A stretch of 63,216 bases of DNA from Bacteroidota bacterium (GCA_035914695.1 JAMIQH010000153.1:1-63216); one strand, 5' to 3'. Shown: positions 17,612 to 49,252, counted from the first letter of the stretch. Made by a program: numbers and translations. The notes: generated by a model not told the origin, from the letters alone.

Positions 17612-19875
17612 TGGCGTTGACGCTCTCTCCCGTGGCGCTGCGTTCGGGGTTGGTGGCGCTGCTGGCTGTGCTGGGGCTCGGACTGCTGCTGTTGCTCCGG
17701 CCGGGTACCTCCGCCGAGGCCGACACCCCGCGCGAGGTCGCTGTGGTGTACGATTCATCCGAAACGGATTGGAACGATTACATGTGGCCCACGGACGCGG
17801 GCAGCATTCGCACGTCGGATTTCGCCGAATTCCGCAAAACGCATTTTCACGCCGGACTCGATGTGAGCACGGGTGGGAGAATCGGCTTCAAGGTATTCGC
17901 CATGCGCGACGGCTGGGTGCACAGCATGTACTTCGAGCCCGGCGGCTACGGCTGGTTTCTGGCGTTGCGGCATCGCGACGGCTATTACACCACCTACGCG
18001 CATCTCGATCGTCCGAACGACAGCATTCTCCTCGCCTGGCAGCAGGCATTGGTGGCGCGCGGCGCTTCCTTCGGCAATGTGGAGTGGAAGGAAGGCGAAC
18101 TGCCGGTGAAAAAAGGCGACATTATCGCTTATACCGGAGATACTGGAGCGGGACCGGCGCATCTGCATTTCGAAATCCGCGACCGCAACTTCAATCCGGT
18201 GAATCCCGGTCTCGCACGCGCGCTGCGTCCGGTGGACTCGCTCGCGCCGGAACTGCGCGGCATACTGCTGCAGCCGCTCGACGCCGCCAGCAGCATCGAC
18301 GGCGCATTGGCCGCCAAGCCGTTGACGCCCGTGGGCGCGCCCGGCGGCATGATGAGCGTCAAGGCCGTTCCGCGCTTGCGCGGACGCATCGGGCTGCTGC
18401 TGCGCGCGCATGATCGCGCGAACGGCGCCACCGACTATCCCACGCCGTACCGGCTGCGCATGCAGGTGGACGGCAAGGACGTGTTCGAATCCACCGCCAT
18501 GCGCTTCGCCGACACGCTCGGTTTTCACATCCGCATCGACCGGGACCATGCGCTGATGCAGGCCATGAAAGGGGAGTTTCGCAAGCTGTACCGCGACGAA
18601 GGCAATCTCCTGGAATTCTACCTGCCGCAATCGCGCGATGCCGGCGTGCTCTCGGCCGAGCGGCTCGGCGTGGGACTCAAGACCGTCACTGTCATTGCGG
18701 AAGATCTCGCCGGCAACCGCAGCAGCGCGCGCATGGTGGTGGAGTTGGCGCGTGATCTTCGTGTACGGCAGACCATGCGCGACGGTGTGTTGGAAGCGCA
18801 ACTGCTCACGGCCGAGGGCTGCGAAGCATTGCGCCTCGAAGTTGCGGATGATGCGCGTGCGGCCGCTGTCGGCAGCTGGACCGCCGCCGAAGCGCGCGCC
18901 GGCGTCAGTGTGGATATCAAACGGTACCGCGACAAACAACTGCGTCTCGTCACCGTGGACGATGCGGGGTATGAGCAGCAGCACGCGCTGTTCGTGCCGG
19001 GTGGCGCTTCGCGCGCAACGGGACGTCTGTACGCCCATCGCGAGATTCATTTCGATGAAATCGTGTACGATTTGCGTCTGGCCACGACCTTCGCCTCCGC
19101 GCCCGAGGTGCGCATCACGCAGGGCGCGCGCAGCGAAGCGGGACGCGTGCATGCCATCGACGCGTCGCGCTACCGCGCCGTGCTGCCCACCTGGGAGGGA
19201 CTCTCGGGTATGGCCACGGTGGAGGTGCGCTACACCGTGGGTGCGAAGGAGATTCTTTGGACCGACAGTGTGCGCGGTACGCATATCAGCGCGTCCGCTG
19301 GCGGTCAGTTGCGATCGGAAGACGGGCGCTTCGTGCTGAGTTTTGCGCCCGGTGATGTGTATCGCTCGCTGTTCTGCACGCTGGAAAATATTGGCGGCGA
19401 TTCCTTGCTCGCCTGGCGTGTCGGTCCCGCCGATGTGCCGCTCGCGGGGCGTCCCGTGTTGAGCATACTCGCGAAAGACGTGGGCGAAGGGGCCTATCTG
19501 TCGATGGACGCGGGCATGCGCAAATACGGCGAAGCGCGGCAACCCCTAACCGGCGTACTCACGGCGCGTGTCGCGCGTTTTCTCGGAGCGTACGCAGTGC
19601 GCCGCGACCAGGCGGGTCCGGTCATTGCCGTGGACATCGCTCCCCGCAGCAGCGAGGCGCTGCGCATCACGGTGCGGGATTCGCTGTCGGGTGTGGACAT
19701 GCGATCAGTGGTGGCCCGCATCGACGACACGGTTGTGCCGCTGTTGTATCACGAGGGCCGCGGCCAGTTGTATGTGCCGCACGCGGTGTACAAGGCCGCG
19801 AACGGCAAGGAAGTGGTGGTCAGCGCCCGCGATTTCGCGGGGAATACGTCGGTGGTGAAAAAAGCGCTGCGGTGA
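17608..19875 (+). CDS. M23-family metallopeptidase domain protein
   Basis: ORF 755 aa. HFHAGLDVS (HxxxD) and GAGPAHLHFEIR (HxH) are the M23 motifs. There is an N-terminal TM/signal segment. The start overlaps the FAH stop. Confidence 0.8.
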   Translation: MMALTLSPVALRSGLVALLAVLGLGLLLLLRPGTSAEADTPREVAVVYDSSETDWNDYMWPTDAGSIRTSDFAEFRKTHFHAGLDVSTGGRIGFKVFAMRDGWVHSMYFEPGGYGWFLALRHRDGYYTTYAHLDRPNDSILLAWQQALVARGASFGNVEWKEGELPVKKGDIIAYTGDTGAGPAHLHFEIRDRNFNPVNPGLARALRPVDSLAPELRGILLQPLDAASSIDGALAAKPLTPVGAPGGMMSVKAVPRLRGRIGLLLRAHDRANGATDYPTPYRLRMQVDGKDVFESTAMRFADTLGFHIRIDRDHALMQAMKGEFRKLYRDEGNLLEFYLPQSRDAGVLSAERLGVGLKTVTVIAEDLAGNRSSARMVVELARDLRVRQTMRDGVLEAQLLTAEGCEALRLEVADDARAAAVGSWTAAEARAGVSVDIKRYRDKQLRLVTVDDAGYEQQHALFVPGGASRATGRLYAHREIHFDEIVYDLRLATTFASAPEVRITQGARSEAGRVHAIDASRYRAVLPTWEGLSGMATVEVRYTVGAKEILWTDSVRGTHISASAGGQLRSEDGRFVLSFAPGDVYRSLFCTLENIGGDSLLAWRVGPADVPLAGRPVLSILAKDVGEGAYLSMDAGMRKYGEARQPLTGVLTARVARFLGAYAVRRDQAGPVIAVDIAPRSSEALRITVRDSLSGVDMRSVVARIDDTVVPLLYHEGRGQLYVPHAVYKAANGKEVVVSARDFAGNTSVVKKALR

Positions 19876-19886
19876 TCGGGGCGAGT

Positions 19887-20137
19887 TGGCTGAGTACGTG
19901 ATACATTTGAAGAGATGAAAGAGAGCGGAGAGAGCGGGGAGGAAGTGTTGAGGTTGCTTCCCGCTCGAATCCTGCTAGCTGGCCGAGTACGTGATACATT
20001 TGAAGAGATGAAAGAGAGCGGAGAGAGCGGAGAGGAAGTGTTGAGGTTGCTTCCCGCTCGAATCCTGCTGGCCTGCTGAGTGCGTGATACATTCGAAGAG
20101 CGCGGAGGATGGGTTGAGGGTGCCTTCCGCTCGAATC
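19887..20137. repeat. tandem 93-bp repeat, two near-identical copies plus one degenerate copy
   Basis: Copies at 19887-19979 and 19980-20072 differ at only a few positions (tgg[ct]cgagtacgtgatacatttgaagagatgaaagagagcggagagagcgg.gaggaagtgttgaggttgcttcccgctcgaatcctgct). The third copy, 20074-20137, has an internal deletion. Confidence 0.9.
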
Positions 20138-20339
20138 GTGCGCGCCGCCGCAATCGAGTCAACGCAAGGGCGCAGAGACGCAAAGCCGCGATAGCTCCGG
20201 GCCCTCTGTGTTCCCCAATCCCTCCTTACCCTTTCTTCACTGTATTACACGAATCATCTCCACGAATATTATCCGGATGATATTGCTTTTTGAATATTAT
20301 CCGGGTATATTTGGACATCATTCACAAGGAGCATGGCTC

Positions 20340-25653: not shown

Positions 25654-25680
25654 TCACTGTGTGAGTCCATCCGTGTGAAT

Positions 25681-25855
25681 ATCACAGTGCGAACGGCAGG
25701 GTTTTAAAACCACAGATTGCACAGATTTCACACAGATTAGCACGGATGGATCGTGGAAGGCTGCGGGGATCGGAGCGATACATAACAGCCGGGGAGAAAT
25801 CGCACGCTCGTTGTCGACAATCCAGCGTCTTATGCACCCTTGCGTCTTCGCGTTG
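25681..25855. repeat. dispersed intergenic repeat, family CACAGAT (copy R1)
   Basis: gttttaaaaccacagattgcacagatttcacacagattagcacggatggatcgtggaagg...gcgtcttatgcacccttgcgtc. Colinear with copies at 27385-27530 and 36205-36403. Confidence 0.85.
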
Positions 25856-25866
25856 TTCCCGCGCGA

Positions 25867-26568
25867 TCAACCGCGCAACACTTTCTTGTATTTCAGGAAA
25901 TAGCGCTTGAGGATATTCACAAGCGGCCGGGCCAGGCCAAGGGGTTGCAACACCACCATGCTCGCATGAAAGATGATGCCTGAGAGTGTTCTCAGCGTGG
26001 ACTCCGCGGGTTTGGGTGCGGTATCAATGTGCACATACATAATGGTCCAGTAGCTACCCTTTATGATGTGTTTCTCGCCCCAGTTGTATCGATCGAAAAA
26101 GTTGCTCGTGATATAGGTTTGATGAATTTCCAGCGGATTGCCGTAGGTTTCCTCCTGGAAAATATCATGAAGTGGACAAATGATAATGATGTGTTTGAAG
26201 GTGCGATGACACTGCTGTATTACCGCGTGGATATCGGAGGGCTTCAAATGTTCCAGAACGTCGCCGAAGATTGCCACATCATACATCTGCGCGTTCTTGC
26301 GCACCCAGTCCTGAAGCAGCGCATGGTGCACTTCATCATACGGGCCTTCATTGCGGAGCATGTTGGCTGTGTTTTCCGAGCCCTCCACGGCCACGAGACG
26401 GACGTCGCTTTGAAGCAGCTCCCGTGCTATTCTCCCGTTTTTCCCGCCTCCGGCGCCAAAATCGACGATGCGAGCAGGCCGCAATGCCTCAAGTTGCTGA
26501 GCGAGAATGTAGTCGCAATACGACACACTGCTTCCGAATTGCTGTTCCACGGTATCCTGGTCTGACAT
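25867..26568 (-). CDS. class I SAM-dependent methyltransferase
   Basis: ORF 233 aa. IVDFGAGGGKNG (motif I) and VAIFGDVLEHLKP. Visibly lower GC than the surrounding core genes. Confidence 0.75.
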   Translation of the reverse strand: MSDQDTVEQQFGSSVSYCDYILAQQLEALRPARIVDFGAGGGKNGRIARELLQSDVRLVAVEGSENTANMLRNEGPYDEVHHALLQDWVRKNAQMYDVAIFGDVLEHLKPSDIHAVIQQCHRTFKHIIIICPLHDIFQEETYGNPLEIHQTYITSNFFDRYNWGEKHIIKGSYWTIMYVHIDTAPKPAESTLRTLSGIIFHASMVVLQPLGLARPLVNILKRYFLKYKKVLRG

Positions 26569-26704: not shown

Positions 26705-26847
26705 CTTGTCCGCATACTATTGGCGAATCGGGTAATATTGTGCGCAATATATCGCTTCCTTTGCAGGGGAGCAAACAGAGCATCAAGACATAGTTTCAAA
26801 ACCACAGATAGCACAGATATCACACAGATTAGCACAGATGGATCGTG
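26705..26847. repeat. 143-bp direct repeat, left copy (contains a CACAGAT module; copy R2)
   Basis: cttgtccgcatactattggcgaatcgggtaatattgtgcgcaatatatcgcttc...gtttcaaaaccacagatagcacagatatcacacagattagcacagatggatcgtg. Near-identical to 36120-36262. Confidence 0.9.
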
Positions 26848-26892
26848 GAAATCCACGATGATCCGATGAAGAAGCCACGAAGTGTCCTTGTG

Positions 26893-27324: not shown

Positions 27325-27384
27325 GGGGGCCTCTCTGAATTGGAATGCTGTGCTACAGAGCGCAGTATGCGTGTGAACGACAAC

Positions 27385-27530
27385 GTTTCAAAACCAGGGT
27401 GCGAACAATGTAGTTTCAAAACCACAGTGCGAACAATGTAGTTTCAAAACCACAGATAGCACAGATATCACACAGATTAGCACAGATGGATCGTGGAAGG
27501 GTGCGGGGAGCGGAGCGAATACCTGTCTCT
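27385..27530. repeat. dispersed intergenic repeat, family CACAGAT (copy R3), with internal 28-bp duplication
   Basis: gtttcaaaacc starts at 27385, 27413 and 27441. The last is followed by cacagatagcacagatatcacacagattagcacagatggatcgtggaagggtgcgggg, as in R1. Confidence 0.85.
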
Positions 27531-27561: not shown

Positions 27562-30500
27562 TTACACCGCTCCGCCCACACCTTTGAATTTCTCCACGAA
27601 TGCGGTGATTTTCTGGAAGACGGTCTGCTTCGTGATCAAGTATTGCGGGTTCAGCGGGCTCATGCGGGGCAGGATGGCGTTGAGTTCGGTGCCGCTGTCG
27701 CTCGCGAATTCGCGTTTTAATGAGGCGGTGATATAGCGCCTGGCAGCTTCCGCATTCAGGTTCTCGGCGGTGATCAACTCTTGCGCTTCCCGCTGCTGTT
27801 CGGCCCGGGCAAAGGTGAAAAAGGCATCAATCACACTGGCCTTGTCGCCAATGTTATCGAGATCGGTCTGGTTGATGAAATCGACGAGCAGGCTTTCCTT
27901 GGCTCGGTTGCCAAGACTGGCGCGAATGACGCGTCGTACTTCGTCAACCAGCCCCGACTTGGTCCTGATGTTCTTGTTGTGCTCGAAGATCAGTTCCAAT
28001 ATGTAGTCGAGATTGATTTCCTGAGACTTCAGGAGGTCGACCTCGAATACCACGTCATCCCAGTCGATGCTGGATGTATCCTTGTCATCGGAGGATTTCT
28101 GGCGGCGCAGCCATTCGCGCACGTCGTTGTAGGTGGAGCGGTAATCCTGGATGATTCGTTCCGACGGTATCGTTATCGCCTGCAGTTCGGCAAGGTCTTC
28201 ATCGCTCAGATAATGCTGCGTCTTGAATGCCTCCACCGCCGCAGGGTCGTTCATGTCAACGCTTTGAAGTGCTTTCAGACTGGCAAATTCATCGAAATGC
28301 TGTAGCACATTCTCGATGCGTAAATATTCTCCGAAGAGCTTCACAAACGCCTTCTTGTCCGCTTCCTTCTCGATGGCGGTGGGATCGGGAAAGCGCTGCT
28401 CCAACTCCCGCACCACATCCATATAACCGCGCCGCGCTTCACCGGTCAGTACATCGGTAAAGCCGTCCATGTATTCCTTGTAGCTCTTCTCCAGCACCAC
28501 GTTCTTTGTGTTCCTGTCGCCAAACAATGTGATGGCGTCGATGGTGGCTTGCTCGAGGTCACGGAAGGTGACGATGTTGCCAAAGGTTTTCGTGGCGTCA
28601 AAAATGCGGTTGGTGCGCGAATATGCCTGCAGAAGGCCGTGGTAACGCAGGTTTTTGTCGACGAACAAGGTGTTCAGCGCCGGCGCATCAAAGCCGGTCA
28701 GGAACATGCCCACCACGATCAGCAGGTCGATTTCCTTGGCCTTCACCTGCTTGGCGAGATCACGGTAGTAATTCTGGAAGCCGTTGCTGTCCACGCTGAA
28801 ATTGGTTTTGAACAGCGTGTTGTAATCCGCTATGGCCGCGCTCAAGAACTCCTTGGCGCTGCTGTCCATGGCGGAGACTTCGAAACTTTCGTCCTGTATG
28901 TCGCCGACAGCATCCTGTTCCTCGTTCGCGGCAAACGAGAAGATGGTGGCTACCTTCAACGGCTTGTCGCTGCCCTTCTGCAATTCCCGGAAGGACTCGT
29001 AGTACAGCTTGGCGGCGTCGACGCTGCTGACCGCGAACATGGCATTGAACCCTTGATTACCAGCCTGGAGGCGGCGTGTTTTCTGTCGATAGTGTTTCAG
29101 GATGTACTGTGTGATTTCGCGTATGCGGTCGGGGTGCAACAGCGCCTGCTTGTTTTCCGCCGCGCTGAGCGTTTTCTCGTTGGACTCGCTCTCAATCGCC
29201 TTGAACTGTGGACGTACATCGTTGTAGTCCACCTTGAACTTCAGCACCTTCTCATCGCGTATGGCGTCGGTGATCACGTAGGAATGAAGTTCGTTGCCAA
29301 ACACGCTGGCTGTGGTTTCGGCGCCCAACGCGTTCTGCGGGAAAATGGGTGTACCGGTGAAGCCGAACTGATAGAACTTCTTGAACTTCTTTTTGAGGTT
29401 TCTCTGCGCTTCGCCAAACTGGCTGCGGTGACATTCATCAAAAATGAACACCACCTGCTTGCCGTAAATGGGCAGATCGCCTTCGCTCTTCATCAGGTTG
29501 TTGAGCTTCTGGATGGTGGTGACGATGATCTTGTTGTCGTCCTTGTCCAGATTGCGCTTGAGACCGGCGGTGCTGTCCGAACCATTGACGCTGTCCGGTG
29601 AGAATCGCTGGTATTCCTTCATGGTTTGGTAATCAAGATCCTTGCGGTCGACCACGAAAAACACTTTGTCGATGAAGTCCAGCTCGGTGGCCACACGCGC
29701 CGCCTTGAAGCTGGTCAGGGTTTTGCCCGAACCGGTGGTGTGCCAGATATAACCGCCGCTTTCCGTTTTGCTCCAGTTTTTCGTCTGCCATGCGCTGTTG
29801 ATTTTCCACAGAATGCGCTCGGTGGCGGCAATCTGATAGGGACGCATGACCAACAGGGTGTTGCTGACATCGAATACCGAATAGTGCAGCAGTACGCTGA
29901 GCAGCGTCCTTTTCTGGAAAAAGGTGGCGGTGAAGTCCTTCAGGTCCTTGATCAGCGAGTTATCCGATTTCGCCCAATTCATGGTGAAGTCGAAGCTGTT
30001 CTTGCCGCGCTGCGTGGTGTTGGCGAAATACCGACTGTCGGTGCCGTTGGAGATCACGAACAGTTGCAGATACTTGAACAGGGAATGCTCGCTGTTGAAG
30101 CTCTCCTTGCTGTAGCGATGCACCTGATTGAAGGCCTCACGAATCGCCACGCCGCGTTTTTTCAGTTCCACCTGCACAAGAGGCAGACCGTTGACAAGAA
30201 TCGTCACGTCGTAGCGATTGGCGTGGCTGCCCGTCTGCTCGAACTGCTTGATCACCTGCAGCCGGTTTCGGGCAATGTTCTTCTTGTCCAGCAGATAGAT
30301 GTTCTGTATATGGCCATCGTCAAAGACAAAGTCGTGAATGTAATCGTCGTGAATCTTGCGGGTTTTTTCCACGATGCCATCACTGGGCTTGTCCAGCCAG
30401 GTTTCCACAAAGCGCAGCCACTCGCCGTCGGAGAATTGCATCTTGTTCAGCGTCTGCAACGCGTTGCGCACATTGGCCAGCAACTTTTCCGGCGTGTTGA

Positions 30501-30660
30501 GGTCGGGCGCGTATTCGTAGCCCTGATTCTTCAAGTCCTGAATGAACTCCCGCTCCAGATCCGATTCGCTCTGGTAACGCTCGTTGGCTTTCCATTCCCT
30601 GACGTATTTGTCCAGGACAATGAAGTGTTTCGATTCGGCAATGGCCTTGTAGTCGCTCAT
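27562..30660 (-). CDS. hsdR: type I restriction endonuclease subunit R
   Basis: ORF 1032 aa. HTTGSGKT Walker A and [13 protein letters not shown] box. N-terminal nuclease-region and C-terminal sequences are typical of HsdR. Confidence 0.95.
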
Positions 30661-30760
30661 TCTTCGGGGTCCTTGCTTTGCAGCTCGTTTTTAGAGTCCG
30701 GTCCAAATCGGCTTCGATGCGTTGCTGCCTGTTGAACGTTTCACCTCAGTCAGCGGCGTT

Positions 30761-31111
30761 TCATGCAGTCGGCATTCGGCGGATTGAGCCGTAATCCAAC
30801 GGGATCACCGCGTCCAGGTTGTAGTACTTGACCTGCTGGGTCTGGGTGAGGCCTACCACGGCGCCGTGCTCAGTGCTTGTTTCCAAAATGGAAACAACCA
30901 CTTCTTCCACCAATTCGCCACTGTCGAAGATGTTCTTCAGATGCCTGGAAATGGCCGGGACGCCCACACCAAACAACTCCGCCATGCGCTTTTGGGTCAG
31001 CCAGATGCTCTCATTGCTGAGCAGGACTTCGACTTTGACTGCGCCGTTGGGCGCGGTGTGGAGCAGGAATTCGGTGCTTTGATCGCGTAATGTGATATTT
31101 GGTCGGGGCAT
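30761..31111 (-). pseudogene. rhuM-family (virulence protein RhuM-like) gene remnant, frameshifted and truncated
   Basis: MPRPNITLRDQSTEFLLHTAPNGAVKVEVLLSNESIWLTQKRMAELFGVGVPAISRHLKNIF...KYYNLDAVI matches the N-terminal third of RhuM-type proteins, which are usually about 330 aa. Near 30803 the expected ISVGYRLN continues in another frame (..VGLRLNP..) and stops. Only about 100 bp remain before hsdR. Confidence 0.65.
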
Positions 31112-31305
31112 AGTTCGATCCCTCAATTTTGAGTATCCAGGGATTGTTTCCCCATAGGTGTGGTACTGGTAGTTGCTAGATTCAACTGATTGGTGACATG
31201 AACTATTTCACTCTCGTCTTGCTTCAGATTGTCTCAAATATCCATGTTTCTGGGTAGGAATGATCGTCAATGCACATTGACTCAAATTGCGGGAGTATGG
31301 CGTAA

Positions 31306-32538
31306 TCATCCAGTTATTACTTCCGGTTGCCTGAAATGATAGGTCTTGATCAAATGGTCTACCAATTCGCTTAGTCTAGCTTTGTCATTGTCCTCGATTT
31401 CAGCCATTTCTTCGCCTGCATGGGCTGAGTGACTGGATAGGTTTAGGAGTCTGTTTCCAAATGGGTCAGGGTTCCCATTGCTGGTTTGTGGAAGAAGAGC
31501 CGACCAGTTGTTGTAGCCTAGGAACGTAGCCATCTTCTCCAAAATGTTTCGTGTGAAATTAAAATGGTACTTCCTGATTTGCCCATTATTAAGTGCAACT
31601 TGGAGTTCGGATAAGAGAAACAGGTGGTACGAGAATGGCGAGTCGGTTGGCTGTGTTGCCAGATTAAACAGACCGTCTTCATTTTTTTCTAATCGATATT
31701 TCTGAAAAGCTTTTTTTGGGCTATATGTCTTCGTCCGTGTGCCATCCTTCTGTGTTTTGTAGGCCGGGTTGCTAAACTCGTTGCAGAGGATATTGTAAAA
31801 AAGCGGGCTGTGTGTTGTGATTACAAAATTAAGCTTGGAATTGCTCGACTTAACCAGCGTCGCCAGGTCGATGGCTAGGTCAATTAAATGATTGTCGTCG
31901 AGCGAACTAACGGGGTCGTCAATAAACACGTATTCTAGAAGATCAAAGTCGTTGCTTCCGTGTTCATTCTTGTCGGATTCCTCAAGAACAGACACCACCT
32001 CTTGAATAAGTGTAAAAAAAATGCTCCATATAAAACTCCTCTCCTCGCTTTTAGATACTTTTAAATTGCCTGTTCGTTCAGTGCCAGTGTCAAGAGAGAA
32101 AATTACTTCCGGGTAGGTTTTTTCACCTGTCCTCTTCGTACCTACAACTACATCTTTCTCTTGAAATCGTGCAGATAGTTTGTCGTTTGTATAACGCTGA
32201 AATGTGTTAACGATATCTATTTCGCCGCGTACACGCAAAATCCAGTCAGTGAATGAATTCGGTTGGATTTTTAATTTTGGCTCGATGTCTTGCTCCAAGT
32301 CGTTATCCCAGTAGAACAAGTCTTCGGTAAATGCGTTGTAATAGAGGATGATGTTGCGTGACGACTGGGGAAGATCGGCTGCTTCATCGCCTTCTCCACT
32401 ATCGGCTTTGGAGGCTATCAGTCGCTTGAACTCTCGTGAGAGACGAGTTTTTCCCACGCCATTGAAGGCGTAGATTATCTGCACTTTCTTGTTGGCATCT
32501 TTTAGCTGTTGTGCGATTTCCGGTAGCGTCTTGCCCAT
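31306..32538 (-). CDS. AAA_13-type ABC-like ATPase, PrrC-like anticodon nuclease candidate
   Basis: ORF 410 aa. Walker A AFNGVGKT, signature-like VSKSEER, Walker B/D-loop YVFIDDPVSSLD and H-loop ITTHS. The C-terminal region has RNILE (RxxxE) and SSHS about 36 residues later. The gene sits between hsdS and hsdR as prrC does in E. coli and starts 1 nt after the hsdS stop. It is the most AT-rich gene in the window. Confidence 0.65.
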   Translation of the reverse strand: MGKTLPEIAQQLKDANKKVQIIYAFNGVGKTRLSREFKRLIASKADSGEGDEAADLPQSSRNIILYYNAFTEDLFYWDNDLEQDIEPKLKIQPNSFTDWILRVRGEIDIVNTFQRYTNDKLSARFQEKDVVVGTKRTGEKTYPEVIFSLDTGTERTGNLKVSKSEERSFIWSIFFTLIQEVVSVLEESDKNEHGSNDFDLLEYVFIDDPVSSLDDNHLIDLAIDLATLVKSSNSKLNFVITTHSPLFYNILCNEFSNPAYKTQKDGTRTKTYSPKKAFQKYRLEKNEDGLFNLATQPTDSPFSYHLFLLSELQVALNNGQIRKYHFNFTRNILEKMATFLGYNNWSALLPQTSNGNPDPFGNRLLNLSSHSAHAGEEMAEIEDNDKARLSELVDHLIKTYHFRQPEVITG

Positions 32539-32539
32539 G

Positions 32540-33787
32540 TTATGTCGTCTCCTCTTCAGGTTTTGGGAAGTTGAACAGCATATCGCGGTAATACTCGTAT
32601 TGCTTTTTGCGCAGTGCGATTTCGCGGGGCAAGCCCTCGGTGAGGGAGTTGGTCAGAGCGTCGAACGTGTCGAGTATGGCGACGATGCGGGCTTGTTCGG
32701 CGAGGGATTTCTGAGGGTCATAGGCATATGGAATCGGGAGCTTGAAGCTCTTTATGATGCTTGAGTTGAGGTCGCCTCTGGGACCCTGTCCTAGTGACTT
32801 AATGTTTTCATAATTAAAACTCACCCAATGAAAAACATAGCGAGATAACGCCTTGGCGCTGTCTACTTCCAGGCAGCCACAGTGCTGATTGGTTGTTAAA
32901 GGAATTTTATTGATCGCTGACCTGCCTGCCGTGGCGCCAGAGATCGCAATTATTACGCAATTCGCAGGAATCCACTTTGCTGCCGACTGCTCCAGGGCTG
33001 CCTGAGTTATTTTTACTTCAGTTCTCTCGATATCGGAAAACTTGACCTCTTGTGTTCTTAGCCATGGAATATCGCCTCCTTCATAGTACTTCGGCTCTCC
33101 GGCTGTAGGGGTTCCGCCTGAATGCCATTTTTTTGTAACATCCCCCAGCGTTTTCCAGGCTACATCTCCTAATTCAAAACTCAACAACCGGTCGCGATAG
33201 TAATTGTATTGTTTTTTACGAGCGGTCAGCTCGGCGGTCAGCTCGGCGGTCAGCTCGGCGGTCAGCTCGGTAAAGGCGTCAAGAATGCGGACGATTTCGG
33301 CCTGGATTTCGAGGGATTTTTTGGGGTTCTCGGGGCAGGGGATGGGGATTCCAAACTTTTCGGTATCAGGGATTGCAATTTGCGGCATTTGCATCTTGCC
33401 GCCAATACTCTGGAAATGGGGTTCGTACAGTTTTAGAAAATGGTAAACATACTTGATATGGATAGCCTCGTTGCTTGAATGGTACGACCACATTTCATTC
33501 TTGTGTGAGAACGGTATGTCGCAATATTCAAATTCAATTACGCCACGAGATTTAACAATAATCGAAGCTTCGCAATTTATATCCTTGGCTGGTATGTCGT
33601 CGAAATCAACAAAGGCGACGGTTTTACCCCCCGCGAAGATTTTTACCGGAGCGCCATCTTTATGAAGCTCTTTCATCTGACCTGCGGTGATTTTTGTGCC
33701 TTTGGTTCGAACAAGCATCTCACCGAGTGGCTTCCATTGAACCTCGACCCCGTCCAACAGCTTCGCCAGAAAAGGAAGTTGACTCAC
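32540..33787 (-). CDS. hsdS: type I restriction-modification specificity subunit S (type IC-like)
   Basis: ORF 415 aa. Two TRDs separated by the central conserved region LDAFTELTAELTAELTAELTARKKQYNYYRDRLLSF. The C-terminal conserved region is LDTFDALTNSLTEGLPREIALRKKQYEYYRDMLFNF. GTG start lies 2 nt after the fic stop. Confidence 0.9.
   Translation of the reverse strand: MSQLPFLAKLLDGVEVQWKPLGEMLVRTKGTKITAGQMKELHKDGAPVKIFAGGKTVAFVDFDDIPAKDINCEASIIVKSRGVIEFEYCDIPFSHKNEMWSYHSSNEAIHIKYVYHFLKLYEPHFQSIGGKMQMPQIAIPDTEKFGIPIPCPENPKKSLEIQAEIVRILDAFTELTAELTAELTAELTARKKQYNYYRDRLLSFELGDVAWKTLGDVTKKWHSGGTPTAGEPKYYEGGDIPWLRTQEVKFSDIERTEVKITQAALEQSAAKWIPANCVIIAISGATAGRSAINKIPLTTNQHCGCLEVDSAKALSRYVFHWVSFNYENIKSLGQGPRGDLNSSIIKSFKLPIPYAYDPQKSLAEQARIVAILDTFDALTNSLTEGLPREIALRKKQYEYYRDMLFNFPKPEEETT
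33222..33269. repeat. 4 perfect tandem copies of the 12-bp unit gcggtcagctcg inside hsdS (encodes the TAEL/ELTA repeat)
   Basis: Directly visible at 33222-33233, 33234-33245, 33246-33257 and 33258-33269. Translated on the minus strand this gives ELTAELTAELTAELTA. Confidence 0.95.
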
Positions 33788-33789
33788 GG

Positions 33790-34395
33790 TTACAACTCCT
33801 CGGTCTTGAATTCGCTGTAGCCTTCGTAGAAATAACTCACGTCGATGCCTTTCATGAACAGGGCGCGGTCGTGGATGCGGTCGGTGAGGGCTTGCTTGAG
33901 CAGGAATTTGATTTCCAGGTCTTTCACCGGACTGCGCCGCATGGCGGAAAGATATTCCTCTTTATCGACGTGATTCCAGTCCACCACCTGCCTGAGTTCC
34001 TTTTTCAGCATGCAATCCAGCCAGATGCGGGTGGCCCGTCCGTTGCCTTCGCGGAAAGGATGGGCGACATTCATTTCCACATATTTTTCCACGATTTGCT
34101 CGAAGTTGCCTTGCGGCATGGCGTCGATATGTTTGAGCGAAGCGTGCAGATACATGACCGGGGCGAAGCGGAAATCACCTTTGGAGATATTCACGTCGCG
34201 GACAATTCCGGCGAAGTGGTAAATCTCGCCAAAAAGATAGGCATGGATGAACGCCAGCCCGGAAAATGTACCCACGTCCACCTTGTGGATGTCGCCCGAG
34301 TCGAAAAGCTGTCTGGCTTTTTGCTTGCTGATTCTTTCCTCGGCCTTGGCCAGCGCGATCTGCTCCGTGATGTTGAGCTTGTTTTCCGGAATCAT
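33790..34395 (-). CDS. fic: Fic-domain protein (AMP-transferase type), class III-like with C-terminal inhibitory motif
   Basis: ORF 201 aa. [12 protein letters not shown] is the canonical Fic motif HxFx(D/E)GNGRxxR. The C-terminal SYFYEG fits the inhibitory (S/T)xxxE(G/N) motif. Its ATG overlaps the hsdM stop (ATGA). Confidence 0.9.
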
Positions 34396-35942
34396 GTGGA
34401 CGCTCCTTCAATCTCGGCTACGATGGCGTCGATTTCCGCGCGCAGCTTGTCGATGTTGGCGACGGTGGTTTTCAGTTCGGCATTCAGTTGGGCAATGTCC
34501 ACGGTCTCACGGGTATCCCGGGCCTCCACATAGCTGCTCACCGACAGATTGTAGTCGTTGGCGGCGATGGCCTCGAAAGGAATGGATTGAGCAAAGTGAT
34601 CCACGTTCGCCTTGCTGTCGAACACGGCGAGGATGCGTTCGATGTGCTCGTCCAGCAGCACATTATTGTTGGTTTCCTTCTTGAACAGACCGCTGGCGTC
34701 GATGAACTGCGTGGTGGTGTCGCTTTTATGTTTGGACAGCACAAGGATATTCACTGCGATGGTGGTGCCATAAAACAGATTGGACGCCAGGGAAATCACC
34801 GTTTCGATGTAGTTGTTGTCGATCAGATATTGGCGGATTTTCTGCTCGGCGCCTCCACGGTAGAAAATGCCGGGGAAGCAGACGATGGCCGCGCGGCCTT
34901 TGCCGGAAAGATAGTGGAGCGCATGCAGCACGAAGGCGAAATCGGCTTTGGATTTGGGCGCGAGCACACCCGCCGGGGCGAAGCGTTCGTCGTTGATCAG
35001 CGTCGGGTCGTCGCTGCCTATCCACTTCACCGAGTAGGGCGGATTGGACACGATGGCGTCGAAGGGTTTGTCCTCGGCGAAATGCGGCTCCGTCAGCGTG
35101 TTGCCCAACTGGATGTTGAATTTGTCGTAGTTGATGTTGTGCAAGAACATGTTCATCCGCGCCAGGTTGTAGGTGGTGTGGTTGATTTCTTGCCCGAAGA
35201 AGCCGTCATCAATCAGATGGTCGTCAAAATGCTTTTTGGCCTGCAGCAGCAAGGAGCCCGAGCCGCAGGCGGGGTCGTAAATCTTGTTGACACCGCTTTG
35301 CGTGTGCATGGCGAGTCGTGCGATCAGCTTGGACACATGCTGCGGCGTGAAGAATTCGCCGCCCGATTTGCCCGCGTTGGCGGCATAGTTGGAGATGAGG
35401 AACTCGTAGGCGTCGCCGAACAGATCGATGTGGCTCGACCCGAAGTCGCCGAAGTCCAGTTCGGCCACGCCTTTGAGCACGGCGGCCAGGCGGGTGTTCT
35501 TGTCCTTGACGGTATTGCCCAGGCGGTTGCTGGTGGTATCGAAGTCGGCGAACAGGCCTTTGATGTCCTGCTCCGACGGGTAGCCGTTGGCGGAAGCTTC
35601 GATGGCGGCGAAAATCGTTGCCAGGTCGGTGTTCAAGCGTTCGTTGCTGTTGGCGTTGGCAGCCACTCTGGCAAAGTGCTGGCTGGGATAGATGAAATAG
35701 CCCTTGGTCTTGATGGCATCATCTTTGATCTCCGGCGTGATGACATTGTCGGCCATCTGAGCATAGCGGATGTTTTCGTCACCGCATTCGAAATACTCCG
35801 CGAAGTTTTCGCTGATGAAGCGATAGAACAGCGCACCGAGCACGTATTGCTTGAAATCCCAGCCATCCACCGCACCGCGGACATCGTTGGCGATTTGCCA
35901 GATCCGGCGTTGCAATTCGGCTCGTTGTTGGCTGCTGGTCAC
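34392..35942 (-). CDS. hsdM: type I restriction-modification DNA methyltransferase subunit M
   Basis: ORF 34392..35972. [10 protein letters not shown] (motif I) and SNPPYS (motif IV) are present. Likely start is GTG at 35942 ([23 protein letters not shown]), with GAGGAGAA upstream; the TTG at 35972 is less likely. Confidence 0.95.
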
Positions 35943-36119
35943 GTGGTTTTCTCCTCGGGACGTGGGTACCAAAGGTACCCGGTTTTTCTATGAAATCAGA
36001 ACTCCCTCATCTCGCACGGGATTGATCCATCAACGGACGCTGGGTGTACGCCTACGCGCAGCAGGTTGCCGGGGTGAAGAGTTCCCACTGTCGCAGCTCC
36101 GCGCCTTGTCTCACTTCCG

Positions 36120-36262
36120 CTTGTCCGCATACTATTGGCGAATCGGGTAATATTGTGCGCAATATATCGCTTCGGCTGCAGGGGTGCAAGCAGAGTATCA
36201 AGATATAGTTTCAAAACCACAGATAGCACAGATATCACACAGATTAGCACAGATGGATCGTG
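36120..36262. repeat. 143-bp direct repeat, right copy (copy R4)
   Basis: Near-identical to 26705-26847, with a handful of substitutions, mostly in the segment cttc[ct]ttt/ggctgcagggg[at]gcaa[ag]cagag[ct]atcaaga[ct]at. Confidence 0.9.
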
Positions 36263-36403
36263 CAAGGCGGCGAGGTTCGGAGTGAATGGATAACGCTCGG
36301 GGGAGAGATCGCACGCACGCTGTCGACGATGTAGCGTCTTATGCATCCTTGCGCCTCTGCGTTATGCGCCCTTGCGTTATGCGCCCTTGCGTTATGCGAC
36401 CTA
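36263..36403. repeat. tail of repeat R4, including a 15-bp tandem repeat (gcgttatgcgccctt, about 3 copies)
   Basis: gatcgcacgcacgctgtcgacgatgtagcgtcttatgcatccttgcgcc parallels R1 (25795-25850). It is followed by gcgttatgcgcccttgcgttatgcgcccttgcgttatgcga at 36359-36400. A related pair, cccttgcgttacgcgcccttgcgttacg, is at 53460-53487. Confidence 0.85.
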
Positions 36404-36474
36404 GCGCTCTGCCTCCAAGGTCGAGTCGGAGCGCCGCATTGTATTCGTACAGGCAGGTTTCCGGCATGCCGCTG

Positions 36475-43547: not shown

Positions 43548-43960
43548 CTTGAAGAGATCGAGCGGAATACATATAAAGAGAGCGCGGAGGGCGCCGAGGG
43601 CGCAGAGGATGGGTTGAGGTCGCTGACCGCTCGAATCCTGGCGACTGGCTGAGTGCGTGATACATTTGAAGAGATGAAAGAGAGCGGAGAGAGCGGAGAG
43701 GAATTGTTGAAGGCGCATCACGCTTGAAATCCGTGCGCCCCGCCGCAATCGGGTCAAAGCAAGGGCGCAGGGACGCCGGCGGCGGTAATCGGTTCAACAC
43801 AACGGCGCAGGGTCGCAGGCCTGAGATCTCCTCTGTGTACTCAGTGTTGGCGAAGCCCTCAGGGTACTCGGTGTTCGCGCAGCGCTCCGGGTTCACGCGC
43901 GTGCTTCCAATTCCTCCTTACCCTCATCTCCTCATTACTCTCTCCTCGAATGGTTTCTCC
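43548..43960. repeat. composite intergenic repeat, second locus of the 19887-20275 family
   Basis: ggctgagtgcgtgatacatttgaagagatgaaagagagcggagagagcggagaggaattgttga at 43647-43710. ggaggatgggttgaggtcgctgaccgctcgaatcctg at 43604-43640. ccgccgcaatcgggtcaaagcaagggcgcagggacgc and ttcctccttaccct also recur, all colinear with the first locus. Confidence 0.85.
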
Positions 43961-47200: not shown

Positions 47201-49252
47201 GGCGACACCACGACGACCACGAATCCGCTGAACGTGACGTTGTGGCGCAGCAAGCGCATCATCGCGTACTTCCGTCCGAAGCCCTGCCAACCCGAGCCCA
47301 TGACGGCGTGGCGGCATTCGCTGGACTTCATCAATGCGCGGCAGACGCAGGTGACGCTCGACTACGCCATGCAGGCGGGCGCGGGTGACGGCCTCGAAGC
47401 CGGACAGACCGATTTGCCGCCCTTCCCGCCGCCCTCGGCCTTCGATATCCGCTTCATTAATATCGCGGGTTCGCAGGGCAGCACCACCGATTGGCGCGCG
47501 GTCAAACCTTCGCACATCTATCAGGGCCGTGTGCAAACCGGACCCACGAATCCGGTGCGCATGAGTTGGCCCGCTCCGCCCGTGTCGCCCAACGCCTCGT
47601 TCACCTTGCGCATTCAGGGTGTGGCGGGCAGCATCGACATGCGGACGACATCGAGCTACACCTTCACCGACGAGGGCACGTACATTTTCACCATCGAGGT
47701 GAAAGAGCCGAGTTGCCCGAAGCCGACGAAGGAGAACGACGTGGTGGTCATCACCAAGGACGTCGACTCCAGGGATTGGCCCTGCGTTAAGTTGACACTC
47801 GACCTGCGCGAGCGTTCCACCGGCAAGCCCTTCCCGTACTACAACCCGTACTTCCTCAATTTCAACGAGAAAATGGGCGATGGTTCGGTGAAGCCGATGC
47901 GTTTGCGTGAAATGAATCAGCTCGACTCCGTGCTGATCGTGTGGCTGTGCTTCGACGACTCGCAGCCCGGCCGTGATCGCGACATCGACATTGTCAACGA
48001 CAACGAGGACGACGATCAGGACAACGACACCACCAAGGTGCGCATTCCGATACCGCTGCCCACCGGAACGGGCGATCCCGTGCGCTTCGCATGGAAGATC
48101 CCGGCCGACTGGCAGATGGTGTCGCTGCCGCTGGACATGAAGGATCCGAATCTGAGTTCGATGTTCAGCAATCCCGGCTTGGTGATGTATCAGTTCAACA
48201 CCACGGCGGGCGCGTACGAACCCATTCTCAACATGGAATTCGGCCGCGGCTACTGGGTGAAGAGTGCCGGACTCGAAGGTATTCTGATCGGTCTCAACCG
48301 TTACGACTTCGAATGGACGGGACTCAACGGCATCGGTCAGCCCTTCGGCTACGGCTGGAATATGATCGGCGCCCTGAGCAAGATTCTCCCCGTGGCAAGC
48401 ATACAGCAGACTCCGGCCGGCAGCATGAAGTCCATTTTCGGATGGAATCCCGCCTCCGGCTACGTGGTGCCCACGAACATCGAACCGGGCAAGGGGTACT
48501 GGGTGCGGGTCGATCCGGGCGCGAAGCTGCGCATGCAGACCACGCCGTTCACCGGCGGTTCCTCCACCACCGCGTACAGCAAGGTTGTGGACAAGCTCGA
48601 CATCGCCGGCATGATCACCGTGTCGGACGAGCAGGGCAGCCGTTCGCTGTACATCACGGGCACCGCGCTGGAGAGCGCCGAGCGTGACGCGCTCATGCTC
48701 CCGCAGTTGCCGCCCGACAACGTTCTCGACGCGCGTACCGGCGAGCAATCGCTGTACGTGTTCGAGGGCACAAACACAGTGCGCATCCGTGCTGCCGGAA
48801 CGGTGACCATCGCCGTGCCGGGCGACATGCCGCGCGCCTCCCTCGAGCTGTGGTCGACGGACGGCACCTTGCTGGCGACCTTCACCGGTCTGGCCGGTGA
48901 GCGTCTGACGCTGGACGTGGCGGGCGAGAAGGAGTTGCTGCTCAAGGCCACCGTGCGTCCCATCGCGGGCGAAGAGGTGCTGGGCATCAACTATCCGAAT
49001 CCCTTCCGCGTGGCGAGCGAAACGTGGATTCCGTACACGCTCGCGCGCGACACGCAAGTGCGCCTGGCGATTTACGACGTCCTGGGTCGTGAACTCCGCA
49101 CACTCGTTTCCTCGCATCAGTCCGCCGGTTCCCGACTCGTGTCGTGGAACGGACGCGACGAGCATGGCGACGCGGTGCCCGCCGGCATGTACATGTACCG
49201 TCTGGAAACCGCCGACGGTGTCGTTTCACGTACCCTCACCATCGTCAAGTAG
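44204..49252 (+). CDS. giant secreted multidomain protein (about 1682 aa) with HExxH metalloprotease-like motif and T9SS C-terminal sorting domain
   Basis: ORF 44012..49252. Start taken at MKRCIHTVVVMLSFLDLHGAAFGQ (ATG 44204, AAAGGA upstream). VIAHEMGHLWGAPDEY contains the HExxH motif. The C-terminus INYPNPF...GMYMYRLETADGVVSRTLTIVK is a T9SS CTD. Confidence 0.8.
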   Translation: MKRCIHTVVVMLSFLDLHGAAFGQAQQPGYVPPDAAAFGLEAHNQHLAVIRTSCNTIDEAVQLRDELVRKGALVSIFTSPQIMMAWVPPEAKSGVQSTQLATALGTIGVESVSYNSAEFNTQVANHTMAALSDADQALLDYLDFIKRPLTEDEREHIRKSEEEMAARAPFMPAHDCMRFPTTDEPSPRELHKGIPSVEVGDPQIMHASKIRGYVVHTSFFVESKSGTGTWNWDGTIYDRYRNFYVAAINYWAGFTAKYGRTLTTYWRLYSPYNTNAQVTGEPTTTGENSFIPEIVKKFYTPSGSNKPPAWDWADAGLEYCWWYNQKIRAAFGSDDAVCGFIAYKPSGSEAIWPHAVGIIWGGTELEGVYFALDTQYWQCELDPFSKPRRNVIAHEMGHLWGAPDEYRNDNCSDSYRGIANINCQTTRPAYGRPGFNMRGWDGIMVENYIYGNSLATPVHTGVIPVGEAVKTRLFTSTPSGAPLTFRNCDDIRTQNLTAPIAVPMDFDYCYRLVVPASRNVSGTMYYFDYFEVKRASGATTNVDWYANELPSYAVTSTFANPVTDVRVVYTSSPPDIFTVNTTVTAHLAPAGSSASPNPGVAVKWRNKYNMNETQTYVEVEVAAGNWQRLQAGSHMPLGPFNVPINQWTGVIVYSIPGVSGTGTNAIQSNREYKFRVVGYFNTNRGTPSQVASVTTRPATPADTVYCQDPNEPNSISSPKVLTSSGPGMEPYRVKGATVITGIAGEFSWFIPKGDYYRVTAINLSGTFFGEYLRLALRVKPGSNFVPKFRAQRAGSATHINGYKSGDEYILSLNTDGEYLIKVEPEISQSISYDLVDRTGGHFAFGEYEILVERANSYPPIAVPCFNCVKYHFLKPFPGEIILEPHPTVDLFRGGVDKAKPLAFKMRYQVPPGFSFLGFGGDLGTLPGNPVDINIGPNTAPGTYNIFPILEPIDPKNAELVIINPQGPGGPHDERKSGPIGSTVVATATAPTGYMFVGWGGDTTTTTNPLNVTLWRSKRIIAYFRPKPCQPEPMTAWRHSLDFINARQTQVTLDYAMQAGAGDGLEAGQTDLPPFPPPSAFDIRFINIAGSQGSTTDWRAVKPSHIYQGRVQTGPTNPVRMSWPAPPVSPNASFTLRIQGVAGSIDMRTTSSYTFTDEGTYIFTIEVKEPSCPKPTKENDVVVITKDVDSRDWPCVKLTLDLRERSTGKPFPYYNPYFLNFNEKMGDGSVKPMRLREMNQLDSVLIVWLCFDDSQPGRDRDIDIVNDNEDDDQDNDTTKVRIPIPLPTGTGDPVRFAWKIPADWQMVSLPLDMKDPNLSSMFSNPGLVMYQFNTTAGAYEPILNMEFGRGYWVKSAGLEGILIGLNRYDFEWTGLNGIGQPFGYGWNMIGALSKILPVASIQQTPAGSMKSIFGWNPASGYVVPTNIEPGKGYWVRVDPGAKLRMQTTPFTGGSSTTAYSKVVDKLDIAGMITVSDEQGSRSLYITGTALESAERDALMLPQLPPDNVLDARTGEQSLYVFEGTNTVRIRAAGTVTIAVPGDMPRASLELWSTDGTLLATFTGLAGERLTLDVAGEKELLLKATVRPIAGEEVLGINYPNPFRVASETWIPYTLARDTQVRLAIYDVLGRELRTLVSSHQSAGSRLVSWNGRDEHGDAVPAGMYMYRLETADGVVSRTLTIVK

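Follow-up and report, generated by a model that had tools for sequence, protein, structure and literature searches.

Can a single type I restriction–modification (R–M) system hold two different toxins in check? The question is raised by a locus on the minus strand, at 27562-35942, of a 63,216-nucleotide (nt) stretch of DNA from a Bacteroidota bacterium (GCA_035914695.1 JAMIQH010000153.1:1-63216), the whole of which is called the window here. Listing of open reading frames (ORFs) and hidden Markov model (HMM) scans gave six elements in the order hsdM, fic, hsdS, prrC, a rhuM remnant and hsdR, matching the gene order and positions of an earlier note on this DNA. That note had described a prr-like type IC R–M operon guarding two latent toxins, a class III Fic protein and a PrrC-like ATPase, in an arrangement for which it knew no precedent. 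The description of the parts was largely accurate, but the guarding of two toxins and the lack of precedent were not borne out. As a whole the locus is best explained, with a probability of roughly 0.7, as an acquired type IC operon with PrrC as a back-up, an autonomous Fic, a dead rhuM and a history of module shuffling.

The R–M system belongs to the type IC family

All three Hsd proteins were compared with HMM profiles and with subunits of solved structure. HsdM matched TIGR00497 (3.3e-193) and N6_Mtase (7e-118), and aligned with the EcoR124II M protein (7BST_D, 955 bits) over residues 1-514. HsdS matched the PADLOC profile Specificity_I over its full length (3.7e-122) and the EcoR124 S chain (7BST_A, 289 bits) over residues 1-412, with the TAEL region aligned. 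HsdR matched TIGR00348 (6.7e-208) and PF12008 EcoR124_C (6.9e-70), and aligned with EcoR124I HsdR (2W00_A, 1777 bits) over residues 6-1031. Because all three proteins match EcoR124I/II subunits over their full length, the assignment of the system to the type IC family of EcoR124I and EcoprrI is firm at the level of sequence, as had been proposed.

The TAEL repeat noted in HsdS was likewise present. Tandem Repeats Finder (TRF) reported a perfect 12-nt unit in 4.1 copies (100% matches), encoding TEL-TAEL-TAEL-TAEL-TA. EcoR124I/II, the prototype of type IC (structures 2W00 and 7BST), resembles the window locus over the full length of HsdR, HsdM and HsdS and shares the central TAEL repeat of HsdS, the copy number of which also varies between two sampled variants of the window locus. 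In contrast to the window locus, EcoR124 carries no nested accessory genes, and the target-recognition domains of HsdS differ.

The second variant was found on a contig of JGI metagenome 3300010429 (Ga0116241_10019754; L001 in our numbering of surveyed loci). It is 99.8% identical to the window over 7.1 kb, differing by two substitutions and by one 12-nt TAEL unit fewer, which gives an HsdS of 411 amino acids (aa) as against 415 aa. A difference of one such unit distinguishes EcoR124I from EcoR124II, where it alters spacer length. The variant pair suggests specificity switching in one population, or else an assembly difference.

The ATPase gene encodes a PrrC in its canonical slot

The gene following hsdS, which had been described as an AAA_13/PrrC-like ATPase, is by sequence a true PrrC. 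The PADLOC PrrC profile matched its product at 2e-131 over residues 3-406, while Pfam picked up only the AAA_13 C-terminal part; the closest database proteins are 56-73% identical, and those among them that NCBI names anticodon nuclease are 59-73% identical. In an alignment of 20 sequences the window PrrC keeps every invariant column. These include the Walker A (G27-x-G29-K30-T31) and Walker B (D207-D208) motifs of an N-terminal ABC-type NTPase as well as R330, E334 and H370 in the motifs RNxLEK and LSSHS. We take the last three to be the catalytic residues of the C-terminal nuclease domain, corresponding to R320, E324 and H356 of EcoPrrC. A PDB sequence search with the window PrrC returned no solved relative.

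The gene lies between hsdS and hsdR, which is the canonical slot, and the prr-like architecture is preserved as in E. coli. The EcoprrI/prr locus of E. coli combines the same Hsd family with the same prrC slot, and its PrrC homologue is 59% identical to that of the window, with all conserved motifs present. E. coli loci that were fetched separately run hsdM-hsdS-prrC-hsdR with one 4-nt overlap and two 1-nt gaps; one of these gaps separates hsdS from prrC, as in the window. In contrast to the window, the E. coli loci lack fic in the interval from hsdM to hsdS, and their prrC abuts hsdR, whereas in the window a spacer and the rhuM remnant come between.

Fic is an apparently intact class III enzyme

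The product of the gene wedged between hsdM and hsdS scored 305.9 bits against the NmFic equivalog model NF046029 (cut-off 230; 7.5e-92) and 1.4e-102 against PADLOC PDC-S04, and shares ~72% identity with the 5NV5 chain in the PDB, a Fic family protein. Its catalytic motif HxFx(D/E)GNGRxxR is intact (residues H112 to 123), as is the inhibitory motif (S/T)xxxE(G/N), read as S187-Y-F-Y-E191-G192 and placed ten residues from the C-terminus; Y188, adjoining the inhibitory motif, is equivalent to Y183 of NmFic. We predict an intact class III enzyme, in agreement with the earlier assignment. A check for disrupted catalytic motifs had been suggested for both embedded genes, and on alignment the motifs of Fic and PrrC alike proved intact.

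NmFic of N. meningitidis and 5NV5 are single-domain proteins of ~200 aa with the same catalytic and SxxxEG inhibitory motifs; unlike them, the window Fic is encoded within a type IC operon. Inhibition of class III Fic proteins takes place in cis, through their own C-terminal helix (PMC3667792, PMC12894286). For NmFic, which modifies GyrB, tetramerisation and auto-AMPylation provide further control (PMC12894286).

The Fic clade also occurs without an R–M partner

Fic is highly conserved: clusters sharing 83-96% identity number more than 100 and derive from Bacteroidota, Rhodocyclaceae, Acidithiobacillus, Nitrosomonas, Desulfoluna and others. For a survey of gene neighbourhoods, 80 metagenomic loci with copies 64-85% identical were classified, 64 of which have at least 300 nt of upstream sequence. 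hsdM lay directly upstream of fic in 12 of these 64; the Fic family is not confined to type I R–M loci in the way that PrrC is. Within type IC operons its placement varied, as fic was also found after hsdR (L089) and between hsdS and hsdR (L094). It was followed by rhuM in four type IC loci (L106-L108 and L120), and prrC was also present in one of the 80 loci only (L100). In L106 (330-9622) the order is hsdM-fic-rhuM-hsdS-AAA_21/AAA_15 ATPase-DUF4276-hsdR, which amounts to four nested genes in one operon; its two-gene ABC-ATPase module fills the slot held by prrC in the window.

Stand-alone copies, 75-83% identical and with no type IC genes nearby, were present in loci that include the following four; the copies beside pyruvate-dehydrogenase genes, between recC and recB-like genes and beside an integrase are 80-83% identical. 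One follows pyruvate-dehydrogenase E2/E3 genes (lpdA; L093). Another (L101:8502-9104, 80% identical) lies between RecC-like (Exonuc_V_gamma) and UvrD/PDDEXK RecB-like genes in a recBCD-type operon. The remaining two stand beside a SoFic-like gene (L098) and beside an integrase (L111). In addition, 966 plasmids in PLSDB carry a fic copy 70-77% identical to that of the window, 787 of them from Enterococcus. In the two plasmid contexts inspected (Enterococcus and Megaera) no hsd gene was listed within 6-7 kb of fic, the PLSDB gene tables being incomplete. Since copies stand alone near housekeeping genes and on plasmids, the Fic clade does not appear to depend on an R–M partner.

Several nested genes are a recurrent state of the operon family

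The converse survey was centred on PrrC. One genome per species was scanned, the 80 loci from other species most similar to the window PrrC were retained, and relatives of each window protein were located in them by tblastn. In all 80, a type IC hsdR directly followed prrC, and hsdS and hsdM came before prrC wherever upstream sequence exists. Where at least 80% of the protein could be aligned, the hsdR products were 68-88% identical to the window HsdR.

In four of the 80 loci fic lay between hsdM and hsdS as in the window, with Fic proteins 77-79% identical: two in one Aliarcobacter metagenome-assembled genome (MAG; L030 and L047), one in a Eubacteriales MAG (L046) and one in Serratia microhaemolytica (L042). 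The Aliarcobacter loci, on two contigs of Aliarcobacter sp. MAG STC_124, are separate hsdM-fic-hsdS-prrC-hsdR operons that differ in HsdS and PrrC. At least one further nested gene was present in 17 of the 80 loci. According to Pfam, the nested products comprise, besides Fic, full-length RhuM, YhcG/DUF1016 nucleases and RelA_SpoT-like, Bro-N and DUF559 proteins. Having one or two more toxin-type genes next to PrrC is therefore a recurrent state of this type IC operon family, and the arrangement in the window is not unprecedented. Two of the loci (L022 and L049) encode small RelA_SpoT-domain proteins of 212 and 220 aa, one between prrC and hsdR and the other between hsdM and hsdS; these are possibly toxic alarmone synthetases.

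The locus of Serratia microhaemolytica ZS-11 (L042) has the order of the window with an intact rhuM, hsdM-fic-hsdS-DUF559-prrC-rhuM-hsdR, and differs by the extra DUF559 gene, which the window lacks. Its HsdS (83%), Fic (79%), HsdM (86%) and HsdR (84%) are close to those of the window. In contrast, its PrrC is merely 53% identical, implying prrC modules of different origin.

The same discordance was seen throughout the survey. HsdM and HsdR average 80% identity to the window proteins across phyla and their identities correlate (rho 0.86), whereas PrrC averages 54% and its correlation with HsdM or HsdR is about 0.5. The best HsdS match (83%, L042) is paired with a PrrC of 53% identity, and the best PrrC match (73%, L002) with an HsdS of 35%. 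These values indicate that the modules have had separate histories.

Guanine plus cytosine (GC) content had been cited as a mark of mosaic assembly. It does fall stepwise as claimed, from hsdM (0.564) through fic (0.526), hsdS (0.484) and prrC (0.436) to the spacer (0.419), and it recovers in rhuM (0.552) and hsdR (0.537); the mean of the whole window is 0.603. However, prrC had a lower GC content than the hsdM/hsdR mean in 68 of the 69 surveyed loci that contain hsdM, prrC and hsdR, with a mean deficit of 4.9 points and a maximum of 13.7, as compared with 11.5 in the window. The staircase was consequently rejected as a mark specific to this locus. Mosaicism as such is upheld by the discordant identities; it is how this operon family evolves and not a peculiarity of the window locus.

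rhuM has lost its core domain

The rhuM region contains a 121-codon ORF (30761-31126), the rhuM frame of which most likely starts at ATG 31111 and not at TTG 31126. When four full-length RhuM proteins of related loci served as tblastn queries against the remnant, RhuM residues 1-107 aligned to 31111-30791 at 69-85% identity, and residues ~303-342 to 30793-30671 at 40-49% identity, across two stop codons. The separate N-terminal and tail alignments point to an in-frame internal deletion that would have removed RhuM residues ~108-302, the whole Virulence_RhuM core, and left the junction ...VGY/GYG.... The decayed tail still ends in an ATGA overlapping hsdR, and in intact relatives an ATGA couples rhuM to hsdR.

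Profile searches agreed with this picture. PADLOC PDC-S05 matched the remnant at 2e-28 over residues 16-112 only, and the Pfam model Virulence_RhuM, which covers the core domain (~residues 70-320 of full-length proteins), gave no match in the remnant; two intact relatives score 8e-103 and 3e-103 for the same model. The decay that had been noted is real, but the gene is more than an N-terminal stub, as a decayed C-terminal tail also follows the internal deletion.

Across the 107 N-terminal codons, which encode a helix–turn–helix (HTH)-like region, the ratio of nonsynonymous to synonymous substitution rates (dN/dS) against intact homologues was 0.10-0.12, compared with 0.10 between intact homologues. 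The tail has diverged far more (59% versus 78% nucleotide identity). Selection may still be acting on the truncated HTH domain, in which case the stub would be more than debris, a small DNA-binding protein maintained by selection. Similar short N-terminal fragments of rhuM occur in L049 and L094, and PADLOC holds several short PDC-S05 models.

Nested genes in earlier work

Under the term 'guilt-by-embedding', Payne et al. (bioRxiv 10.1101/2024.01.29.577857) describe the nesting of genes within Hma, BREX, DISARM and type I R–M loci, report PrrC as almost exclusively nested in type I R–M and announce the release in PADLOC of 145 untested candidates (PDCs). Genes embedded in BREX, DISARM and type I R–M loci served to define the families. 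Two of them, PDC-S04 (Fic) and PDC-S05 (RhuM), are matched by window genes, with the difference that the window RhuM lacks the core domain. The nesting of both in type I R–M loci is already catalogued. A description of the combination of fic with prrC was absent from the part of the Payne et al. text that was searched, and our literature search found no description of a type I locus with both genes, the NgoAV and type I review papers making no mention of Fic. One PDC-S04 was reported to have no defence activity in its native host (bioRxiv 10.1101/2024.12.20.629700). For a PDC-S05 RhuM protein, strong protection of E. coli B has been reported in a preprint.

Proposed explanation: a shuffled operon with an autonomous Fic

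We propose that the locus is a horizontally acquired type IC operon that gathered accessory genes, as many such operons do. Judged by family membership, HsdM2S would methylate host DNA and HsdR would join it to cut unmodified incoming DNA. PrrC would most likely behave as its E. coli homologue: held latent by the Hsd complex, it would be set free once that complex comes under attack from an anti-restriction factor of a phage, and would then cut tRNA-Lys in its anticodon loop and so abort the infection. Fic, on the other hand, is expected to be an autonomous class III AMP-transferase that is kept off by its own C-terminal inhibitory helix and that, once de-repressed, would AMPylate GyrB by analogy with NmFic. 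Its tie to R–M would be genetic, consisting of co-transcription, translational coupling and co-transfer. The rhuM layer would have been lost through deletion of its catalytic core. The combination probably arose by modular shuffling among type IC loci, for which hsdM and hsdR, ~80% identical across phyla, could have served as recombination anchors. On this account Fic is a predicted candidate defence gene, and nothing suggests its masking by the R–M complex, because homologues stand alone and the C-terminal helix would suffice for self-inhibition. The locus adds one to the cases in which defence genes lie nested within defence systems; it does not represent a system of a new kind.

Several observations weigh against this proposal. 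fic stands directly after hsdM in 12 of the 64 Fic loci that could be evaluated, as it does in all four loci of the PrrC survey that combine fic with prrC, and such tight, conserved placement is compatible with a functional tie that is invisible to genomics. The embedded Fic clade is, moreover, very conserved across phyla (83-96% identity). To our knowledge, masking of PrrC by Hsd proteins outside E. coli has been tested in few systems. Finally, the lack of hsd genes beside plasmid fic copies rests on the listed entries of incomplete gene tables.

The earlier view that HsdMSR masks two latent toxins, with co-translated Fic assembling on the complex beside PrrC and both being freed on phage attack, is unlikely in our judgement. 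The ATGA overlap of hsdM and fic and the 2-nt gap to hsdS speak for it, as do the same fic slot with similarly tight spacing in L030, L042, L046, L047 and about ten metagenomic type IC loci, and the high conservation of the embedded clade. However, tight spacing is normal at every junction of the operon family, loci without fic included, and fic and prrC co-occur only occasionally (in 4 of 69 PrrC loci and in 1 of ~5 evaluable Fic-bearing type IC loci). The same clade, at 64-85% identity, is found at other positions in type IC operons (L089, L094), without type IC genes (L093, L098, L101, L111) and on many plasmids. The inhibitory glutamate helix of class III enzymes (PMC3667792) is intact in the window Fic (S187xxxE191G192). 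It is similarly improbable that Fic placed after hsdM is a second R–M-coupled abortive-infection effector, made in stoichiometric amounts with HsdM and HsdS, de-repressed on phage attack and freezing gyrase. De-repression would then come by monomerisation or auto-AMPylation once a phage had put the methylase complex out of action or silenced the operon. Were this true, Fic together with PrrC would give a three-layer defence from one transcript, comprising DNA cleavage, tRNA cleavage and a topoisomerase block.

Fic might instead play no part in phage defence and be carried as a passenger, a gene of selfish or regulatory nature (for example one controlling growth via AMPylation and de-AMPylation of GyrB) that profits from linkage to an often-transferred operon under selection. 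We regard this as a possibility to be kept in mind, though not a probable one. It would account for the stand-alone copies in housekeeping contexts and on plasmids, and the sole functional test of PDC-S04 that we found gave no defence activity in the native host (bioRxiv 10.1101/2024.12.20.629700); Payne et al. (bioRxiv 10.1101/2024.01.29.577857) described the PDC families as untested candidates. That negative test, however, covered one host and a limited phage set, and a mere passenger sits uneasily with the repeated nesting of fic at specific positions within type IC loci, alongside PrrC, RhuM and ABC-ATPase/Toprim-like pairs, all of them proven or candidate defence genes. Very unlikely, finally, is an action of Fic on its neighbours, for example by AMPylating an Hsd subunit or PrrC and so tuning restriction, its alleviation or the latency of the nuclease. 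Translational coupling and the conserved gene neighbourhood are all that favour it; among class III Fic proteins no target of this sort is known, the characterised one being GyrB, and the stand-alone homologues lack the would-be Hsd and PrrC targets.

As it stands, the locus, read as a shuffled type IC operon with an autonomous Fic, reveals no new mechanism. It is a compact natural example of stacked defence genes in one type IC operon. The sister TAEL variant and the relatives with the same modules in other combinations make it a convenient test bed for asking whether R–M-nested class III Fic proteins (PDC-S04) defend against phages, and whether nesting reflects functional coupling or co-transfer.

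Junctions and coordinates of the locus

Coordinates are collected in Table 1. The first four genes are joined as the note had stated, by an overlap and gaps of 2 and 1 nt. Read from the sequence, the hsdM/fic junction is ACATGA, in which the fic start overlaps the hsdM stop (shared ATGA); fic and hsdS are separated as TAA-CC-GTG, and hsdS and prrC as TAA-C-ATG. The start of hsdM is the same in the gene call of L001 and is also supported by sequence. A perfect palindrome, GGGTACC-ttt-GGTACCC (35963-35981), precedes the hsdM GTG start and its ribosome-binding site GAGGAG by about 20 nt and could be an operator or a leader hairpin.

The stretch between prrC and rhuM is AT-rich as described, but it is ~194 nt long when rhuM starts at ATG 31111, not 180 bp. 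Counts of promoter and terminator consensus matches in this spacer were at the level of shuffled sequences, with none convincing, and are uninformative on a separate hsdR promoter. Rfam and tRNA scans of the locus region gave no match.

Table 1. Positions of the operon elements and flanking repeats, counted from the first letter of the window.
Feature	Position	Strand	Remarks
hsdM, type IC methyltransferase subunit	34392-35942	-	516 aa; GTG start at 35942, preceded by GAGGAG
fic, class III Fic AMP-transferase (predicted)	33790-34395	-	201 aa; start overlaps hsdM stop
hsdS, specificity subunit, two target-recognition domains	32540-33787	-	415 aa
TAEL-encoding 12-nt tandem repeat inside hsdS	33222-33270	-	4.1 copies
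prrC, PrrC-family anticodon nuclease (predicted)	31306-32538	-	410 aa
AT-rich non-coding spacer, prrC to rhuM remnant	31112-31305	-	GC 0.419 over 31127-31305
rhuM pseudogene	about 30671-31111	-	intact N-terminal 107 codons = 30791-31111
hsdR, type IC restriction/translocase subunit	27562-30660	-	1032 aa
60-160-nt repeat, four copies, core GTTTCAAAACCACAGATAGCACAGATATCACACAGATTAGCACAGATGGATCGTGGAAGG	25673-25870, 26705-26870, 27371-27518, 36120-36363	+	
Repeat copy upstream of hsd operon, insert boundary	36120-36363	+	repeat families D2, D3, D6
Repeat copy just downstream of hsdR	27371-27518	+	includes 2.5 tandem 28-mers

Flanking repeats and other features of the window

The hsd operon lies in a low-GC insert spanning about 25.7-36.4 kb of the window, and the neighbouring genes are of housekeeping type (a radical-SAM enzyme, an AlaDh-like protein, YkuD and AddAB-like proteins). 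Within the window, the four copies of the 60-160-nt repeat are confined to this low-GC stretch. Every copy is placed just 3' of a gene or operon on the minus strand; these are the genes for a 233-aa S-adenosylmethionine (SAM) methyltransferase and for a DUF1801 protein of 143 aa, then the hsd operon, then the YkuD gene. The repeats may be marks of successive insertions into one intergenic region.

An integron/attC origin of the four copies was rejected: they contain no inverted repeats, their folding resembles that of shuffled sequences (z -1.4 to +0.9) and no integrase is found among the neighbours. They gave no Rfam match. The copy downstream of hsdR includes the 28-mer GTTTCAAAACCACAGTGCGAACAATGTA in 2.5 tandem copies (27385-27455). 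A XerCD/dif module was also considered and rejected, as the 28-mer loosely resembles a XerC arm but no dif match with at most 3 mismatches to the consensus, which is proteobacterial, was found. The right-hand flanking repeat is adjoined by a 15-nt tandem repeat, TGCGCCCTTGCGTTA, in 3.8 copies (36350-36406).

Further out, a 93-nt unit occurs in three tandem copies at 19808-20181, with a related copy (81-91% identical) in the same orientation at 43567-43816. These repeats bracket a 23.5-kb segment containing the hsd locus and the AddAB-like genes. Elsewhere in the window, probable membership of the host in the Bacteroidota-related (FCB) group, in spite of its 60% GC, is indicated by three plus-strand ORFs ending at 49252, 50360 and 61349. 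Their C-termini carry the type A sorting domain of the type IX secretion system (T9SS; TIGR04183 at 7e-10, 5e-05 and 9e-10), in which the motif QNYPNPF is present.

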